Below are positions 1 to 8,843 of a stretch of DNA of 15,174 nucleotides, one piece after another. The stretch is from the UHGV virus genome UHGV-1738898, one strand, 5' to 3'. A program made the translations under genes and the position numbers. The notes beneath the pieces are model-generated. The model made no database searches. It saw only the letters and a list, made by a program, of their open reading frames with translations, and had not been told where the DNA came from. Within the stretch, counting starts at the first letter, position 1; each line of letters begins with the position of its first letter. The stretch comes from a virus.

Positions 1-111
1 CTGAGGCAGCACCTGGCACGGCTGGGACGGAAGTCGCTGTCGTTCTCAAAATCGGTGGAGCTGCATGACAAAGTCATCGGGCATTATCTGAACATAAAAC
101 ACTATCAATAA
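1..111 (+). other. 3' end of an ORF entering from upstream of the window (frame 1, stop TAA 109-111); possibly the displaced 5' part of the gpE-like capsid gene
   Basis: Frame 1 is open from position 1 to the TAA at 109-111 ([36 protein letters not shown]). It aligns weakly, in register, with lambda gpE residues about 29-50 (R..S..F...G). The downstream E-like ORF is in frame 3. Confidence 0.3.
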
Positions 112-170
112 GTTGGAGTCATTACCCACGAGATGAGGGATACGAATCAAAAACAATTCGTCCAGGTTAT

Positions 171-965
171 ATGAAGCCGAAAAGCAGCATTGATCCAAAT
201 AAGTTAGCTGTGCGCCCTGCTGGTGTGTCACCTGAGCAATACAATGCTTTTGGGGCGCGTAATATTAAAGTTAAACAGGCGATTGTAAATCAGGCTAAAG
301 CTATTCGTGCACGTATTGAATGGCTTGCTGTTCAGGCAATCACAACGGGGAAAAATATCATTGAGGGCGATGGTATTGAACGTTATGAGCTGGACTGGAA
401 TATAAAACCACAAAATATCATCACTCAGTCTGGCGGTACTGAGTGGTCAGGTAAGGATAAAGAAACTTTTGATCCAAATGATGATATTGAGAGCTACGCA
501 GAATTTAGTGAGGGCGTCACTAATATCATCATTATGGGTGGTAATGTATGGAAGAAATACCGTTCATTCAGAGCGATAAAAGAGGCTTTGGATACCCGTC
601 GTGGTTCTAATTCCGAACTGGAAACGGCCCTTAAAGACCTTGGTGATTCGGTGAGTTTTAAAGGGTATATGGGCGATGTTGCGATTGTTGTTTACAGCGG
701 GCGTTATACCGACGAGGACGGAACAGAAAAACATTTCCTTGATCCTGATTTGATGGTGCTTGGCAATACGGCTCTTCAGGGGATTGTCGCCTATGGCGGT
801 ATTCAGGATCCGGAGCTAATCCGAATGGGGCTGACTAAAGCCGAACTTGCACCGAAAAACTATATTGTGCCTGGTGATCCGGCTATTGAATATGTGCAGA
901 CACATTCAGCACCACAGCCAATACCGGCCCGCATCAATCGTTTTGTTACCGTTCGCATTGGCTAA
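171..965 (+). CDS. Major capsid protein homolog (lambda gpE family), divergent; 5'-incomplete or frameshifted copy covering the equivalent of gpE residues ~78-341
   Basis: The 264-aa ORF aligns along its whole length with the lambda E protein encoded at 6034-7059 in this window (shared blocks ITQSGGTEWS..KDK.T.DP.DDIE.YA, LDTRRGS.SELETA.KDLG, GDVAIVVYSG, MVLGNT, IQD). Similarity continues upstream of the ATG in the same frame (PGYMKPK vs lambda PGYVKPK) until an in-frame TGA at 66-68. No convincing Shine-Dalgarno precedes ATG 171. Confidence 0.65.
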   Translation: MKPKSSIDPNKLAVRPAGVSPEQYNAFGARNIKVKQAIVNQAKAIRARIEWLAVQAITTGKNIIEGDGIERYELDWNIKPQNIITQSGGTEWSGKDKETFDPNDDIESYAEFSEGVTNIIIMGGNVWKKYRSFRAIKEALDTRRGSNSELETALKDLGDSVSFKGYMGDVAIVVYSGRYTDEDGTEKHFLDPDLMVLGNTALQGIVAYGGIQDPELIRMGLTKAELAPKNYIVPGDPAIEYVQTHSAPQPIPARINRFVTVRIG

Positions 966-974
966 GGGGGAGCA

Positions 975-1316
975 ATGGCTACTCATTACACTGAACTCAT
1001 GGCTGGCACTGAAGCACTGGTGACTACGCTGGGGATATTTTCAGCTAATAAAGGGGTAATTCCTGCATTTACGCCACTGATGCAGGAAGATGCAACAGGT
1101 GCACTGGTGGTATGGGATGGTTCGAGCGTAGGTAAAGCGGTTTATGTTTCCGCTGTACAAATCGACACCGCGAAAAAAATACAGGCTCAGGTCTATAAGA
1201 CAGGTGTCTTAAATGTTGATGCTCTGAACTGGCCTGAGTCTGTTAAAGAACTGTCAGTAAAGGTTGCAGCGTTTGTTGGCTCAGGTATTTCTGTTCAGCC
1301 GCTGGCTCGTGTGTAA
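975..1316 (+). CDS. Head decoration protein homolog (lambda gpD family), divergent
   Basis: The 113-aa ORF has a strong RBS (GGGGGAG, 966-972). It aligns with lambda D encoded at 5647-5979 (THY near the N-terminus; PAFTPLMQEDATGALVVWDG vs [20 protein letters not shown]; VYKTG...WPE vs FYKSG...WPE; AF.G..IS near the C-terminus). Confidence 0.7.
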   Translation: MATHYTELMAGTEALVTTLGIFSANKGVIPAFTPLMQEDATGALVVWDGSSVGKAVYVSAVQIDTAKKIQAQVYKTGVLNVDALNWPESVKELSVKVAAFVGSGISVQPLARV

Positions 1317-1327
1317 AGGGGGATACA

Positions 1328-1711
1328 ATGCAGAATGATTACAATGACCTTAAGCCAATTGCCGAAATGATGTACCCGAATCCAGCTGTAGAGGAATTAA
1401 AAGCTATCGCTGACAAAATGTGTTTAAGCGAGCGCCTTGTTGATATGAATCAGGTGATGGAAATTACAACCCTGAGTCGTCGTACACTGCTAAACCTTGA
1501 GGCTAGTGGAGAGTTCCCGGAGCGTGTGCAGGTTACGGAAGGGCGTAAGGCCTGGTATTTAAGTGAAGTGATCGACTGGATAAATAATATTCCTCGCGCT
1601 TCTGAATATTGCCGCGTACCTGTCCCAAAAAAGCCAGATGCGGCGCTATGCCTCAAGATTGAGCGTGTACGCCGCAATGCACGGGATGGTCGCTATAAGC
1701 TGATTGGTTGA
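1328..1711 (+). CDS. AlpA/excisionase-family winged-HTH DNA-binding protein with N- and C-terminal extensions
   Basis: The 127-aa ORF has a strong RBS (AGGGGGA). Its central segment LVDMNQVMEITTLSRRTLLNLEASGEFPERVQVTEGRKAWYLSEVIDWI matches the AlpA family pattern (LSRxTIYxLxxxGxFPxPVxLGxRxVxWxxSEIxxWI). Confidence 0.7.
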   Translation: MQNDYNDLKPIAEMMYPNPAVEELKAIADKMCLSERLVDMNQVMEITTLSRRTLLNLEASGEFPERVQVTEGRKAWYLSEVIDWINNIPRASEYCRVPVPKKPDAALCLKIERVRRNARDGRYKLIG

Positions 1712-1736
1712 TGAAATTAGGGCCCGCTCTGGCTGG

Positions 1737-1801
1737 CGGGTCCTTTCCGGTGATCCGGTAGGCTACGGGGCGGCGACCTCGCGGGTTTTCGCTATTTATG
1801 A
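1737..1801. other. cos: Lambda-type cohesive-end site (cosQ/cosN region); the 12-nt cohesive-end sequence GGGCGGCGACCT lies at 1768-1779
   Basis: CGGGTCCTTTCCGGTGATCCG...TACGGGGCGGCGACCTCGCGGGTTTTCGCTATTTATGA matches my recollection of the lambda right-end/left-end junction (ACGGGTCCTTTCCGGTGATCCGACAGGTTACG | GGGCGGCGACCTCGCGGGTTTTCGCTATTTATGAAAATTTTCC). There are a few mismatches just left of cosN and complete divergence after ...TATTTATGA. It sits in the 200-bp gap between the AlpA-like gene and the Nu1-like gene, 134 bp upstream of the latter. Confidence 0.8.
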
Positions 1802-1912
1802 GCCTTTTTCGGGTGCTGGTGGTGGTTTTGTTGTTCGCTCTATCTCTATGAATAAAAAGGAAAAGATAAAGCCAATACACCAACCTGAAACATTACTTAA
1901 GTGGGGATATTG
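1802..1912. promoter_or_regulatory. Putative divergent cosB (small-terminase binding region) between cosN and the Nu1-like gene
   Basis: This is the position equivalent to lambda cosB (R3-I1-R2-R1), but the sequence is unrelated to the lambda R sites (CGTTTCC-type). It contains short repeats (GGTGGTGG, TTGTTGTT, CTCTATCTCTAT) and an A-rich tract. The call rests on position only. Confidence 0.3.
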
Positions 1913-2455
1913 ATGAAATCGCACCTGATGAACAAAAAAAACATGGCGCAAAGCTGCCGTGTAAGTGCGACAGCGTTCGACAAGTGGGGAGTGACTCCCG
2001 TTGAACGTAAAGGCCGCGAGGCGTTTTATGATGTTGCCAGCGTAATAGACAATCGGGTTAGCAATGCAATTAACCAGATTACAGACGACAAAGGCGAGAT
2101 TGATGATGATGAACTCCTACGAGTCAGGATCAGATTGCTGACAGCACAGGCAGAGGCGCAGGAGCTTAAAAACGAGCGCGAACGCGGCGACGTTATTGAT
2201 ACAGCGTTTTGTATATACGTGCTTTCAAAATTGGCGAGTCAGATTTCTTCAATCATGGACAGCCTGCCGCTTGCCATGACAAGGAAGTTTCCCGACATGA
2301 AGCCGTCTATGCTGGATGGACTGAAAAAAGAAGTTATCAGAGCCTGTAACGCATGCGCAAAACTTGACGAAAACATACCGCTGATGCTGTCCGATTATCT
2401 GATGGAAACTGCCGGAAACGTACCGGATAAGTTGCAGCCGAATAAAGATAAGTAA
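1913..2455 (+). CDS. Terminase small subunit, lambda Nu1 family; N-terminal DNA-binding domain divergent, C-terminal half conserved
   Basis: ATG 1913 is preceded by GGGGA (1903-1907); the ORF track shows an upstream GTG at 1901. The C-terminal region RLLTAQAEAQELKNERERGDVIDTAFCIYVLSKLASQISSIMDSLPLAMTRKFPD closely matches lambda Nu1 (RLTRAQADAQELKNARDSAEVVETAFCTFVLSRIAGEIASILDGLPLSVQRRFPE, from memory). The N-terminus is only loosely similar (NKK, YD.A.VI). Confidence 0.8.
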   Translation: MKSHLMNKKNMAQSCRVSATAFDKWGVTPVERKGREAFYDVASVIDNRVSNAINQITDDKGEIDDDELLRVRIRLLTAQAEAQELKNERERGDVIDTAFCIYVLSKLASQISSIMDSLPLAMTRKFPDMKPSMLDGLKKEVIRACNACAKLDENIPLMLSDYLMETAGNVPDKLQPNKDK

Positions 2456-2466
2456 CGTAGTACGCT

Positions 2467-2748
2467 ATGACTGAATCCGAAATACTGCGATTAATCCGCC
2501 GTGCTTGTGGAATCAGCAAGCAGCATGACGAACAGGCCACGCAGCCGGACAGCGTGACCGCAGATAATTATGTGCGTGTAGTGGCTGAGGTGATGCGCCG
2601 TGACGGTATTGAGCTTAACGGCGTGGATATGCGCAACATACGAACAAGAGTCCTTGAGTTGCTGGCATATCGTCGCCGTTCTCAACAACGGAGGGAGAGC
2701 GCGAAAAATACTTACCAGTGGAAGAAGCCGGAACGATTGCGGCGGTAA
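2467..2748 (+). CDS. Hypothetical 93-aa protein with an arginine/lysine-rich C-terminus; sits where the large-terminase gene A would start in lambda
   Basis: Intact ORF 12 bp after the Nu1-like stop, with a weak RBS. It has no recognisable similarity to the lambda gpA N-terminus or any family I can name. C-terminal tail RRRSQQRRESAKNTYQWKKPERLRR. Confidence 0.4.
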   Translation: MTESEILRLIRRACGISKQHDEQATQPDSVTADNYVRVVAEVMRRDGIELNGVDMRNIRTRVLELLAYRRRSQQRRESAKNTYQWKKPERLRR

Positions 2749-2763
2749 CTTGCTGATATTCCC

Positions 2764-2788
2764 GATAACGCAAAATTGCGCTGGCTGA
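2764..2788. repeat. 25-bp direct repeat, copy 1 (GATAACGCAAAATTGCGCTGGCTGA), containing an inverted repeat CGCAA-aa-TTGCG
   Basis: Matches 2950-2974 at 22 of 25 positions. A second small dyad TTGCA-t-TGCAA lies at 2793-2803. Confidence 0.6.
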
Positions 2789-2949
2789 CTTGTTGCATTG
2801 CAAAAAGTTAAGCAGGAAGGCACGGCCTGTAAGATGGGATGCAGTAAGTAGTTCAAGGCTACCTTGTGCTGGCACGCACAGTTAAGCCGTCGGTGCTGGA
2901 TATCCCCCACTGGGGGAAAAGCTGGCTACATCCCTCACATCTGAGGACT

Positions 2950-2974
2950 GATAACGCGACATTGCGCTGGCTGG
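2950..2974. repeat. 25-bp direct repeat, copy 2 (GATAACGCGACATTGCGCTGGCTGG)
   Basis: Matches 2764-2788 at 22 of 25 positions. It is followed at 2979-2992 by the inverted repeat GTGCAA-aa-TTGCAC. Confidence 0.6.
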
Positions 2975-2999
2975 CAAAGTGCAAAATTGCACGATGGCC

Positions 3000-3161
3000 T
3001 AACCCATTGATTATTTCGAAAACCTGCAATGCAGGAAATCGGGGAAGTAAGCCTAAGCTATTGATTGTTTCGAAAACCCCCATTGGGGGATGTCGGGAAA
3101 GTAAGACTAACCCATTGATTCTTCCACAATCCTCAATTTGAGGAGGCCGGAACGTCTACAT
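3000..3161. repeat. Three tandem ~54-bp units, each carrying a perfect 13-bp 6-1-6 dyad at the same phase (3023-3035 CCTGCAATGCAGG; 3077-3089 CCCCCATTGGGGG; 3131-3143 CCTCAATTTGAGG)
   Basis: Units 1 and 2 (3000-3053, 3054-3107) are about 78% identical by my count. Unit 3 starts with the same 13 nt (TAACCCATTGATT) and then degenerates, but keeps a perfect dyad exactly 54 bp after the previous one. Arm substitutions between dyads are mirrored so symmetry is preserved. A related dyad CCCCCACTGGGGG lies at 2904-2916. Confidence 0.7.
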
Positions 3162-3428
3162 AGCTGCATCGCCGTAATGATGATTCAGCCCACCAGCCAA
3201 ATCAGCACAGCAACGACAGAATAGCCCGACACAGAAAAACCACGAATATGGGGTTTTTGTTATGACATGGTCATGATGACCACTCATACAAAACAGGTAA
3301 AGCCCACCAGCCTGATTAAAGGTTAACCGGAAAAAAGCCAGGTATCCAATCTCGATATGGGGATCCCTATATCGACATTAACGCCCACTAAAACTGTGCA
3401 TATATGCATAGAAAAAGCATCCACCAGC

Positions 3429-3520
3429 TTTATGACGGATGCCGCTCATCTTATAAATAATCGTGTATTGCAGTGTGTATTGCGACTCCTTTAAACGATA
3501 GGTCTGAGCATTCGTAATGT
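3429..3520 (+). promoter_or_regulatory. AT-rich region with sigma70-like promoter candidates upstream of the truncated B fragment
   Basis: Candidate 1: TTTATG (3429-3434), 17-bp spacer, TATAAA (3452-3457). Candidate 2: TTAAAC (3491-3496), 18-bp spacer, TAATGT (3515-3520). Hexamer matching by eye only. Confidence 0.2.
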
Positions 3521-3563
3521 ACTGTTTTTAAATTTTATTTTTTCCTGTCTTTTCATAAAGGCG

Positions 3564-4337
3564 ATGTATGCCGCCACCATTGAAAGTGAGCTGGATACGC
3601 AGTCAGCGATGGATTTTATTCTGGGCGCGAACAGTCAGGAGCAGCGGGAAAGGCTGACGGGCTGGATTGGTGAAATTGCCGCGTATTACGCTGCAGCACC
3701 GGTCCGTCTGGGAGGCGCAAAAGTGCCGCACCTGATGCCGGGGGACTCACTGAACCTGCAGACGGCTCAGGACACGGATAACGGCTACTCCGTGTTTGAG
3801 CAGTCACTGTTGCGGTATATCGCTGCCGGGCTGGGTGTCTCGTATGAGCAGCTTTCCCGGAATTACGCCCAGATGAGCTACTCCACGGCACGGGCCAGTG
3901 CGAACGAGTCGTGGGCGTACTTTATGGGGCGGCGAAAATTCGTCGCATCCCGTCAGGCGAGCCAGATGTTTCTGTGCTGGCTGGAAGAGGCCATCGTTCG
4001 CCGCGTGGTGACGTTACCTTCAAAAGCGCGCTTCAGCTTTCAGGAAGCCCGCAGTGCCTGGGGGAACTGCGACTGGATAGGCTCCGGTCGTATGGCCATC
4101 GATGGTCTGAAAGAAGTTCAGGAAGCGGTGATGCTGATAGAAGCCGGACTGAGCACCTACGAGAAAGAGTGCGCGAAACGCGGTGACGACTATCAGGAAA
4201 TTTTTGCCCAGCAGGTCCGTGAAACGATGGAGCGCCGTGCAACCGGTCTTAAACCGCCCGCCTGGGCGGCTGCGGCATTTGAATCCGGACTGCGACAATC
4301 AACAGAGGAGGAGAAGAGTGACAGCAGAGCTGCGTAA
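3564..4337 (+). pseudogene. B: Portal protein gpB, 3' fragment only (C-terminal 257 codons, equivalent to lambda B residues ~277-533)
   Basis: The ORF (MYAATIESELDTQSAMDFILGANSQEQRERLTGWIGEIAAYYAAAP...AAAFESGLRQSTEEEKSDSRAA) matches the C-terminal half of lambda B as I recall it. An in-frame stop lies at 3492-3494. DNA upstream of ~3555 is AT-rich, non-coding and unlike lambda. The first approximately 276 codons of B are absent from the window. Confidence 0.85.
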
Positions 4338-5637
4338 TCTCCCGCATATTGCCAGCATGGCTTTTAATGAGCCGCTGATGCTTGAACCCGCCTATGCGCG
4401 GGTTTTCTTTTGTGCGCTTGCAGGCCAGCTTGGGATCAGCCGCCTGACGGATGCAGTATCCGGCGACAGCCTGACTGCCGGAGAGGCACCCGCGGCGCTG
4501 GCGTTATCCGGTGATGATGACGGACCACGACAGGCCCGCAGTTATCAGGTCATGAACGGCATCGCCGTGCTGCCGGTGTCCGGTACGCTGGTCAGCCGGA
4601 CGCGGGCGCTGCAGCCGTATTCGGGAATGACCGGTTACAACGGCATTATCGCCCGTCTGCAACAGGCTGCCAGCGATCCGATGGTGGACGGCATTCTGCT
4701 GGATATGGACACACCGGGCGGGATGGTGGCGGGAGCATTTGACTGTGCTGACATCATCGCCCGTGTGCGAGACATAAAACCGGTATGGGCGCTGGCCAAC
4801 GACATGAACTGCAGTGCAGGTCAGCTGCTTGCCAGCGCCGCCTCCCGGCGTCTGGTCACGCAGACCGCCCGGACAGGCTCCATCGGCGTCATGATGGCTC
4901 ACAGTAATTACGGTGCTGCGCTGGAGAAACAGGGCGTGGAAATCACGCTGATTTACAGCGGCAGCCATAAGGTGGATGGCAACCCCTACAGCCATCTACC
5001 GGATGATGTCCGGGAAACACTGCAGTCCCGGATGGATGCAACCCGCCGGATGTTTGCACAGAAGGTGTCGGCATATACCGGCCTGTCCGTGCAGGCTGTG
5101 CTGGATACCGAGGCTGCAGTGTACAGCGGTCAGGAGGCCATTGATGCCGGACTGGCTGATGAACTTGTGAACAGTACCGATGCGATCACCGTCATGCGTG
5201 ATGCACTGGATGCACGTAAATCCCGTCTCTCAGGAGGGCGAATGACCAAAGAGACTCAATCAACAACTGTTTCAGCCACTGCTTCGCAGGCTGACGTTAC
5301 TGGCGTGGTGCAAGCGACGGAGGGCGAGAACGCCAGCGCTGCGCAGCCGGACGTGAACGCGCAGATCACCGCAGCGGTTGCGGCAGAAAACAGTCGCATT
5401 ATGGGGATCCTCAACTGTGAGGAGGCTCACGGACGCGAAGAACAGGCATGCGTGCTGGCCGAAACCCCCGGTATGACCGTGGAAACGGCCCGCCGTATTC
5501 TGGCCGCAGCACCACAGAGTGCACAGGCGCGCAGTGACACTGCGCTGGATCGTCTGATGCAGGGGGCACCGGCACCGCTGGCTGCAGGTAACCCGGCATC
5601 TGATGCCGTTAACGATTTGCTGAACACACCAGTGTAA
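4318..5637 (+). CDS. C: Head protease / minor capsid protein gpC (S49 ClpP-like peptidase family), GTG start
   Basis: The translation from GTG 4318 (VTAELRNLPHIASMAFNEPLMLEPAYARVFF...) matches lambda C over its 439 aa. The start overlaps the B stop by 20 bp, as in lambda. The ORF-track start at 4183 is an in-frame upstream extension inside B. Confidence 0.9.
   Translation: MTAELRNLPHIASMAFNEPLMLEPAYARVFFCALAGQLGISRLTDAVSGDSLTAGEAPAALALSGDDDGPRQARSYQVMNGIAVLPVSGTLVSRTRALQPYSGMTGYNGIIARLQQAASDPMVDGILLDMDTPGGMVAGAFDCADIIARVRDIKPVWALANDMNCSAGQLLASAASRRLVTQTARTGSIGVMMAHSNYGAALEKQGVEITLIYSGSHKVDGNPYSHLPDDVRETLQSRMDATRRMFAQKVSAYTGLSVQAVLDTEAAVYSGQEAIDAGLADELVNSTDAITVMRDALDARKSRLSGGRMTKETQSTTVSATASQADVTGVVQATEGENASAAQPDVNAQITAAVAAENSRIMGILNCEEAHGREEQACVLAETPGMTVETARRILAAAPQSAQARSDTALDRLMQGAPAPLAAGNPASDAVNDLLNTPV
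5032..5637 (+). CDS. nu3: Scaffolding protein Nu3, in-frame internal start within C
   Basis: In-frame ATG at 5032 (MDATRRMFAQKV...) at the position corresponding to lambda Nu3, sharing the stop of C. Called from established lambda gene structure. Confidence 0.7.
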   Translation: MDATRRMFAQKVSAYTGLSVQAVLDTEAAVYSGQEAIDAGLADELVNSTDAITVMRDALDARKSRLSGGRMTKETQSTTVSATASQADVTGVVQATEGENASAAQPDVNAQITAAVAAENSRIMGILNCEEAHGREEQACVLAETPGMTVETARRILAAAPQSAQARSDTALDRLMQGAPAPLAAGNPASDAVNDLLNTPV

Positions 5638-7872: not shown

Positions 7873-8451
7873 ATGGCCATAAAAGGTCTTGAGCAGGCCA
7901 TTGAAAACCTCAGCCGTATCAGCAAAACGGCGGTGCCTGGTGCCGCCGCAATGGCCATTAACCGCGTTGCTTCATCCGCGATATCGCAGTCGGCGTCACA
8001 GGTTGCCCGTGAGACAAAGGTACGCCGGAAACTGGTAAAGGAAAGGGCCAGGCTGAAAAGGGCCACGGTCAAAAATCCGCAGGCCAGAATCAAAGTTAAC
8101 CGGGGGGATTTGCCCGTAATCAAGCTGGGTAATGCGCGGGTTGTCCTTTCGCGCCGCAGGCGTCGTAAAAAGGGGCAGCGTTCATCCCTGAAAGGTGGCG
8201 GCAGCGTGCTTGTGGTGGGTAACCGTCGTATTCCCGGCGCGTTTATTCAGCAACTGAAAAATGGCCGGTGGCATGTCATGCAGCGTGTGGCCGGGAAAAA
8301 CCGTTACCCCATTGATGTGGTGAAAATCCCGATGGCGGTGCCGCTGACCACGGCGTTTAAACAAAATATTGAGCGGATACGGCGTGAACGTCTTCCGAAA
8401 GAGCTGGGCTATGCGCTGCAGCATCAACTGAGGATGGTAATAAAGCGATGA
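7873..8451 (+). CDS. Z: Tail completion protein gpZ
   Basis: The 192-aa ORF MAIKGLEQAIENLSRISKTAVPGAAAMAINRVASSAISQ... matches lambda Z. Its stop overlaps the U start (ATGA). Confidence 0.9.
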   Translation: MAIKGLEQAIENLSRISKTAVPGAAAMAINRVASSAISQSASQVARETKVRRKLVKERARLKRATVKNPQARIKVNRGDLPVIKLGNARVVLSRRRRRKKGQRSSLKGGGSVLVVGNRRIPGAFIQQLKNGRWHVMQRVAGKNRYPIDVVKIPMAVPLTTAFKQNIERIRRERLPKELGYALQHQLRMVIKR

Positions 8452-8843
8452 AACATACTGAACTCCGTGCAGCCATACTGGATGCACTGGAGAAGCATGA
8501 CACCGGGGCGACGTTTTTTGATGGTCGCCCCGCTGTTTTTGATGAGGCGGATTTTCCGGCAGTTGCCGTTTATCTCACCGGCGCTGAATACACGGGCGAA
8601 GAGCTGGACAGCGATACCTGGCAGGCGGAGCTGCATATCGAAGTTTTCCTGCCTGCTCAGGTGCCGGATTCAGAGCTGGATGCGTGGATGGAGTCCCGGA
8701 TTTATCCGGTGATGAGCGATATCCCGGCACTGTCAGATTTGATCACCAGTATGGTGGCCAGCGGCTATGACTACCGGCGCGACGATGATGCGGGCCTGTG
8801 GAGTTCAGCCGATCTGACTTATGTCATTACCTATGAAATGTGA
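8448..8843 (+). CDS. U: Tail tube terminator protein gpU
   Basis: The 131-aa [55 protein letters not shown]... matches lambda U. Confidence 0.9.

Follow-up and report, generated by a model that had tools for sequence, protein, structure and literature searches.

The right end of a lambdoid-embedded PICI: a conserved 93-residue gene, an array of IHF-box repeats and a large terminase probably borrowed from the helper

Introduction

Satellites that carry a cos site and the specificity subunit of a terminase, and take the motor of their helper, belong to known biology: PICIs carrying their own terS have been known since 2018, and borrowing of a large terminase (TerL) is an established strategy of satellites rather than a new one. 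The Nu1 small subunit recognises cosB with its N-terminus and grips TerL with its C-terminal ~40 residues (Murialdo and Feiss, PMC9026076). Among described satellites, the helper-embedded PICIs (HE-PICIs) come closest to the locus discussed here; their attP is marked by a doubled TGTATTGC motif ~81 bp upstream and ~132 bp downstream of the attP centre, and the paper that describes them does not discuss the terminal gene and repeat array with which we are mainly concerned (PMC10111431).

The DNA analysed, called the window throughout, is the whole 15,174-nucleotide stretch of the virus genome UHGV-1738898, read on one strand. An initial annotation had remarked that a Nu1-like gene in it is followed by a gene for a small basic protein where lambda has its large terminase gene, and had speculated that this 93-residue protein might be a packaging factor. 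Our best overall explanation is that the locus is an HE-PICI that uses the gpA of its helper, and that the 93-residue gene encodes a regulator acting on neighbouring repeats; as a whole it is plausible and put forward tentatively.

The satellite and its helper prophage

Positions 128-3570 of the window are almost certainly the right-hand part of an HE-PICI that sits, co-oriented, in the portal gene of a lambdoid prophage. Its ends and the structural genes of its Late zone are marked by the following features.

1..127, strand not applicable: end of an IS1 copy (matching the IS1 of numerous phage and plasmid records at 98-100%)
171..965, + strand: 3' part (3' two-thirds) of a lambda-E-like major capsid gene in the Late zone (Pfam Phage_cap_E, profile positions 74-327 of 329)
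975..1316, + strand: gpD-like head decoration gene of the satellite (Pfam HDPD, 53 bits; phrog_49)
1328..1711, + strand: second AlpA-like helix-turn-helix gene, just upstream of cos (Pfam Phage_AlpA, 35.8 bits; phrog_2790, E 1e-49)
3190..3428, + strand: three CCACCAGC repeats (at 3190, 3304 and 3421; spacing 114-117 bp) in the attP-proximal arm
3464..3483, + strand: doubled TGTATTGC motif (copies at 3464 and 3476), the HE-PICI attP signature
3558..3570, + strand: attR identity block AAGGCGATGTATG, the right end of the satellite (attL of N66 compared with attR of the window and the intact portal gene)
3564..4337, + strand: 3' fragment of the lambda-type portal gene B of the helper prophage (Pfam Phage_portal_2, profile positions 238-354)

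The stretch 127-3600 is present as one block in 65 complete E. coli genomes. E. coli N66 is 100% identical to the window over these positions, and there the block forms the right end of a 10.7-kb island lying between the two halves of the portal gene of a lambdoid prophage, with the gene order integrase, AlpA, Bro-N, Icd-like, DUF4222, primase, SSB, capsid E, D, AlpA-like, terS and the 93-residue gene. The 5' portal fragment, the integrase and attL are all found in the N66 copy; in the window the portal gene resumes at 3564 on the same strand (the fragment is labelled 'phage portal protein, missing N-terminus' in RefSeq) and is followed by homologs of C, D, E, FI, FII, Z, U, V, G, T, H, M, L and K. 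The att block maps near profile position 241 of the Pfam portal family, which places the island in the HE-PICI site group B:Phage_portal_2:~241. The order of zones, Integration (int, AlpA), Bro, Replication (primase, SSB) and Late, is seen in N66 and in other near-identical genomes; in the window itself IS1 replaces everything left of the capsid gene. The doubled TGTATTGC motif lies ~81-100 bp upstream of the att core, and attL of N66 has a second copy ~133 bp past the core. The CCACCAGC repeats lie upstream of both the doubled motif and the att core and are candidate arm-type sites for the recombinase.

The IS1 end abuts the capsid gene and truncates it in the source genome; the gene is full-length in N66, where it encodes 346 aa. 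All satellite matches in E. coli start at query base 127, and since the other satellite-bearing genomes match only from that base, the IS1 junction is confined to the source genome. The source-genome copy may thus be interrupted or truncated and, being cut by IS1, may be a dead remnant.

The AlpA-like gene of the Late zone (127 aa) is longer than, and additional to, the int-adjacent AlpA of intact copies; it corresponds to c1501 of EcCICFT073, which has 137 aa and no Pfam match.

cos, the small terminase and the large terminase of the helper

Two features make up the packaging cassette.

1738..1800, + strand: satellite cos, with a cosQ-like box GGGTCCTTTCCGG (1738) and cosN GGGCGGCGACCT (1768-1779), located by alignment with the cos of the N66 helper and with cos1 and cos2 of EcCICFT073
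1913..2455, + strand: Nu1-type small terminase gene terS (Pfam Phage_Nu1, 85.7 bits; alternative GTG start at 1901)

The cosQ-like box and cosN are identical to those of lambda; cosQ and cosN are common to satellite and helper, and the cosB side diverges. RefSeq relatives start terS at the ATG at 1913, giving a protein of 180 aa, of which the Pfam match (gathering cut-off 30 bits) spans residues 70-152 only. Satellite TerS and helper Nu1 are 37% identical over their full length, with the similarity concentrated in the C-terminal half, and the alignment runs through the end of the helper protein, where the last 40 aligned residues are ~38% identical by hand count. By sequence, the N-terminal domain of TerS matches no solved Nu1 domain, and TerS shows no similarity to RppA. 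Judging from these alignments, TerS would combine a DNA-binding N-terminus different from that of the helper with a C-terminal half whose TerL-binding region is probably lambda-Nu1-like.

From the satellite integrase to the right end (attL to attR) of the 100%-identical N66 copy there is no large terminase gene, so that the ORF scan and the gene content of N66 agree with the initial annotation that none follows the Nu1-like gene. The lambda-type gpA that it proposed to seek elsewhere was found as the A gene of the helper, outside the satellite: in near-identical genomes the helper prophage has its own Nu1/A ~1.2-3.7 kb before the left end of the satellite, and in the N66 helper A overlaps the end of Nu1 by 26 nt, as it does in lambda and as the annotation had said of lambda. 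Because this TerL belongs to the helper, no large terminase gene flanks the satellite as part of the same element. A cassette of cos and a Nu1-type TerS without a large terminase must therefore use helper gpA, much as had been proposed from the cassette itself, and we consider it highly probable that TerL is borrowed from the helper. The gene content is observed; mechanistically, the satellite TerS would bring helper gpA to the satellite's own cosB. If helper gpA is recruited to the satellite cos in this way, the satellite would need no large terminase of its own.

A conserved terminal gene

The gene behind terS is the last of the satellite.

2467..2748, + strand: 93-residue ORF, conserved terminal gene of enterobacterial PICIs (phrog_1561, full-length profile match)

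It follows the terS stop after 11 bp (2456-2466), one less than first reported. The protein (~11 kDa, pI 10.55, 17 Arg and 4 Lys) has the Arg/Lys-rich tail that drew attention to it, 11 of the last 26 residues being Arg or Lys. A profile search, one of the checks suggested for it, identified phrog_1561 over the full length (E 1.2e-55, all 93 residues aligned to all 93 profile positions), whereas neither family nor fold came from the rest: there was no Pfam, NCBIfam, PADLOC or PDB-sequence family match, the Pfam search still gave no family when repeated at E up to 10 on 57 members, and PDB sequences returned chance matches only, with E above 1. Weak ankyrin/DARPin-like matches were rejected, the matching repeats being low-complexity 'GIELNG'. 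The structure model is all-helical, with three main helices and the basic tail, at a pLDDT of 75 and with low confidence in the N-terminal third.

Two known identities were considered and rejected. As a gpA, the protein is short (93 aa) and all-helical, lacks any GpA_ATPase or GpA_nuclease domain and has no similarity to the gpA N-terminus. As an Rpp, it has 93 residues against 139-154, a model without a beta wing and no sequence match to RppC, and in CFT073 RppA is encoded by a separate gene directly upstream of the ortholog. Sequence comparison linked it neither to a terminase family nor to Rpp, Nu1 or gpA.

The initial annotation had asked whether the ORF is conserved, and it is. The family forms 977 clusters at 90% identity, every one of them named 'hypothetical', and is narrow and enterobacterial, with 39 representatives at 50% identity and Citrobacter members at 44-48%. 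Of 5426 complete E. coli genomes, 1575 (29%) carry it, with up to 6 copies per genome, and it turns up in just one phage record out of 50,697. Pairwise comparisons give a dN/dS of 0.26-0.40 and third-position changes in excess, and the C-terminal Y-x-W-K-K-P-E-R-L-R-R is among the invariant or near-invariant residues. The ORF is almost certainly a real conserved gene and no chance frame. A Shine-Dalgarno-like GGGGG or GAGG precedes the gene in most variants; none was found upstream of the variant in the window, whose translation probably depends on coupling to the terS stop 11 nt away. A 139-aa antisense ORF (2491-2910, - strand) overlaps the gene, and the codon-position pattern favours the + strand gene; in the original CFT073 annotation the antisense counterpart was called c1506 and was cloned in that orientation.

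The settings of the family were surveyed in 80 IMG/VR loci, a scan of one genome per species having yielded one locus only. The gene directly upstream encodes a Nu1-like TerS in 46 of the loci, a P27-type TerL in 10, RppA in 8, a protease-capsid fusion in 7 and some other product in 9. In portal- and capsid-embedded HE-PICIs the family member is the last gene before attR and follows a Nu1-type terS; in HE-PICIs that occupy the terminase A gene it comes 260 bp after a protease-capsid fusion, with no terS or rpp nearby; in chromosomal PICIs it is the last gene, after terS or Rpp; and in islands with HNH and P27-type TerS/TerL the homolog starts 5 nt after terL. On this comparison of loci, the position after terS is one of several arrangements and not a special one. 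DNA homology among the islands extends from the ATG of the gene, or ~15 nt before it, to ~40 nt past the stop.

Several further observations concern the surroundings of the gene. In chromosomal PICIs the ORF is preceded at 40-130 nt by a second cos in inverted orientation, known from the literature as cos2 (positions 8264-8313 of locus L012, from CFT073, and likewise in L008-L011); the island in the window has no cos2, and its ORF stands 11 nt behind terS. In L014, a capsid-embedded HE-PICI, an abortive-infection family gene (4679-5440) lies on the opposite strand between the 93-residue homolog and attR, and because of this gene the stretch after the ORF can be regarded as a cargo slot in some islands. 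In O157 genomes the family is represented once, in the island at phoQ; 'hypothetical gene 1792', without which EcCIEDL933 transfer is impaired, is probably unrelated to the family.

Repeats downstream of the gene

The DNA beyond the ORF had been described as non-coding. RefSeq relatives indeed have no gene annotated over 2749-3563 (~800 bp), but the region contains structured repeat units.

2746..2787, + strand: repeat unit 0, with the IHF-box TAACTTGCTGATA and the hairpin CGCAA-AA-TTGCG, overlapping the stop of the 93-residue ORF and conserved with it
2997..3158, + strand: three tandem 54-nt units, each an IHF-box followed by a 5-bp hairpin (stems CCTGC, CCCCC and CCTCA)

The four co-oriented units of ~50 nt start at 2746, 3000, 3054 and 3108. 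Each is built from a box CTAACCCNTTGATWTTYYCGRAAA, whose reverse complement is the perfect IHF consensus WATCAANNNNTTR, a fixed distance, a hairpin of 5-6 bp and RRNYCGG. On the + strand of the 15-kb window the IHF-consensus motif occurs at the four unit places only, and on the other strand once, inside IS1. Over 37 distinct loci the motif has a density of 2.2/kb in the 900 nt after the ORF and 0.048/kb in the 3 kb before it, a ~45-fold difference. Distinct units number 46; in 36 of them a perfect hairpin of at least 5 bp stands at the same position, against 1.9 in shuffles, and its stem has 8 sequence variants. Islands have 1-4 units downstream of the ORF, seen in L008-L015 and in many IMG/VR loci. 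The region 2745-3165 folds with z = -4.5; Rfam gave no match in window 1-3700. Shared ancestry alone could account for the linkage of the 93-residue gene with unit 0.

The most unexpected observation is the relation of these units to phage roi and ant genes. Unit 2 (3044-3096) is 90.6% identical to the antisense of a segment of roi from HK629 (L097, 1201-1253), and unit 3 (3102-3151) is 96% identical to the antisense of a segment of ant from phi330 (L098, 1201-1250). The matching segment is internal, at codons ~41-58 of phage genes that join a pRha-like N-terminus to ANT/KilAC, and it bears an IHF consensus and a palindrome itself. In HK022 this segment is reported to contain neighbouring binding sites for IHF and for Roi, which thus binds inside its own gene (Clerget and Boccard 1996). 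In the N66 helper prophage no roi-type gene carries a matching unit, and lambda, which lacks roi, still mobilises EcCICFT073. Because of these two cases, the array is not required for the basic helper relationship.

Two other uses of the repeats were considered. A role as cosB was rejected, as their distance from cos varies between island types, and a role as core attP arms is unlikely, since the integrases that accompany them differ and 375-1400 bp separate them from the core.

Published constructs of the EcCICFT073 ortholog

Experiments on the ortholog of the 93-residue gene in EcCICFT073, called 'c1505', have been published. The EcCICFT073 genes downstream of ori were each cloned in pBAD18, and only c1503 (rppA) reduced lambda plaques; an island in which c1504-07 is replaced by cat served as the wild type in transfer assays (PMC6739421). 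In later work the c1504-07::cat island yielded ~1e6-1e7 TFU/ml (transductants). The ortholog has thus been both cloned and deleted by others, with no phenotype reported.

What these constructs contain was established here by mapping the published primers (Table S5, PMC6739421) onto the CFT073 sequence (locus L012). The 'c1505' insert corresponds to L012 8317-8690 (SalI to HindIII) and covers the ortholog (8374-8655) together with its ribosome-binding site. It presumably lies in the sense orientation, going by the pBAD18 polylinker. The 'c1506' clone is the antisense ORF. The 'c1504-07::cat' replacement spans L012 8104-9001 and removes cos2, the entire ortholog and its three repeat units. Because of the c1505 clone and the c1504-07::cat results, the ortholog is no inhibitor of lambda and is dispensable in the laboratory for induction, packaging, transfer and integration. 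The cat cassette carries a promoter, which could mask a role of the ortholog in transcription towards attP-int. Since the ORF and its three units were deleted with no gross transfer defect, any function of the ORF should be subtle, conditional or masked by the cat promoter.

What the 93-residue protein may do

The protein may be a small regulator that binds nucleic acid and works on the neighbouring repeats; this is a real possibility, though one that falls short of probable. Its gene is the conserved last gene of the rightward operon in many kinds of enterobacterial PICI rather than a stand-in for gpA, and the protein would have an architectural or regulatory part, acting at the attR-proximal end of the satellite on the array that begins at its own stop codon. 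In the excised form it might insulate or tune transcription that runs on from the late operon through attP to int; alternatively, it might serve in handling phage regulators of the Roi/Ant type.

An accessory, moron-like gene directed against the host or against competing phages or satellites, as a regulator, an exclusion function or an anti-defence function without a part in the satellite cycle, is unlikely. The gene does adjoin the attR-proximal variable region with its cargo, such as the abortive-infection gene of L014, the literature expects immune systems to flank the PICI packaging module on both sides, and no transfer phenotype was seen for the EcCICFT073 deletion. Accessory genes are usually patchy, however, and this one is near-universal at a fixed position across PICI types; PADLOC has no match for it, and overexpression of the ortholog left lambda unaffected.

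The reading of the protein as a regulator on the repeats can be carried further, to a right-end module of protein and array for a novel form of cross-talk between satellite and helper, with units copied from phage Roi/IHF sites. We rate this extension as rather unlikely. Such a module could be a decoy or sensor for Roi/Ant-type regulators of the helper, an antisense 3'-UTR directed at their mRNAs, or a switch of the excised state placed before attP-int.

Decidedly doubtful is a role as an accessory factor of integration or excision, or as a regulator of int. The excised form does bring ORF, repeats, attP and int into one co-oriented series, IHF-type sites are typical of att arms, and many directionality factors are equally small and basic. 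Against this, the gene accompanies a variety of integrases and att sites and lies 375-1400 bp away from the core, the model has no winged-helix fold, and the EcCICFT073 derivative lacking the ortholog still excises, transfers and integrates.

The packaging role that the initial annotation had ventured, a packaging-redirection or terminase-interacting factor working with the satellite TerS or on helper gpA in favour of the satellite cos, fares worse and is very improbable. It would suit the place of the gene directly behind terS in the window (11-nt gap), behind a Nu1-like TerS in 46 of 80 loci and directly behind terL in cf-PICI-like loci, as well as the basic tail and the probable co-translation with late genes. 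The family also follows a protease-capsid fusion, however, with no terS or rpp near, in prophages of a different head type; the ortholog does not interfere with lambda and is missing from the transfer-proficient c1504-07::cat island; and nothing in the sequence resembles Rpp, Nu1, gpA or a terminase family. The speculation is contradicted by the varied neighbours of the gene and by the EcCICFT073 constructs, and we think it likely that the ORF is not a packaging factor.

It is barely credible that the ORF is no functional coding gene and that a DNA or RNA element on either strand is what has been conserved, for although the stop codon overlaps a conserved repeat unit, a 139-aa antisense ORF spans 2491-2910 (c1506 in CFT073) and the variant in the window has no Shine-Dalgarno sequence, the dN/dS of 0.26-0.40 and the third-position bias in the + frame speak for a protein, as do the length and frame kept across ~1000 clusters, down to 44% identity in Citrobacter, and the Shine-Dalgarno-like sequences of other variants.

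Overall, the gene is carried by ~29% of complete E. coli genomes and keeps its place across several classes of satellite, and the published tests of its ortholog consist of a lambda overexpression screen and a marker replacement that is able to mask regulatory roles. If the array is functional, it would be a pointer to how Gram-negative PICIs sense or manipulate their helpers, which is an open question in the field (the phage inducer of alpA).

Comparison with known systems

The satellite resembles published HE-PICIs (Tommasini, Mageeney, Williams 2023, PMC10111431) in its co-oriented insertion in a lambdoid late gene, here the portal gene, in the four-zone layout of intact copies, in the doubled TGTATTGC motifs that flank att at the published distances, and in being a cos-type island with captured E and D homologs. 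The HE-PICI prototype 11capE is reported to lack terS (PMC10111431), whereas the satellite of the window has a Nu1-type terS; unlike published HE-PICIs, the copy in the window is also interrupted by IS1.

With the Nu1-A operon of lambda it shares the cosQ-cosN sequence and a Nu1-family gene directly downstream; it differs from that operon in having no A gene, another cosB side and a divergent N-terminal domain. The cf-PICIs (Alqurainy et al., bioRxiv 10.1101/2022.09.08.507074) are related through the terminal gene, since some islands with HNH, P27-type TerS-TerL and portal genes end in a 94-aa homolog 5 nt after terL. Those islands encode a large terminase and a capsid of their own.

The system of Rpp (Fillol-Salom et al. 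2019, PMC6739421) likewise places a satellite gene right after a lambda-type cos and redirects the helper terminase, and the Nu1-like TerS of the window would fill an analogous role. Rpp has 139-154 aa, a winged HTH and no TerL-binding tail, and it forms a heterodimer with the helper TerS, whereas TerS of the window keeps a Nu1-like C-terminal half. Its route to gpA would then be more direct than that of Rpp, which is tail-less and must pair with the helper TerS.

In EcCICFT073, 'c1505' (RefSeq C_RS07030, WP_000133413) is 76% identical to the protein of the window over all 93 residues and likewise stands last ahead of attR, with repeat units of the same kind behind it; it differs in coming after rppA and an inverted second cos, not after a Nu1-type terS. 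Finally, the units share with the Roi/IHF site of HK022-type roi genes the IHF consensus, an adjacent 13-nt palindrome and 90-96% identity. They differ from it in being non-coding, antisense to the operon, present in 1-4 copies, varied in their palindromes and placed outside any roi gene, and as candidate sites of this kind they tie the satellites to IHF and to the poorly understood Roi/Rha/Ant regulators.
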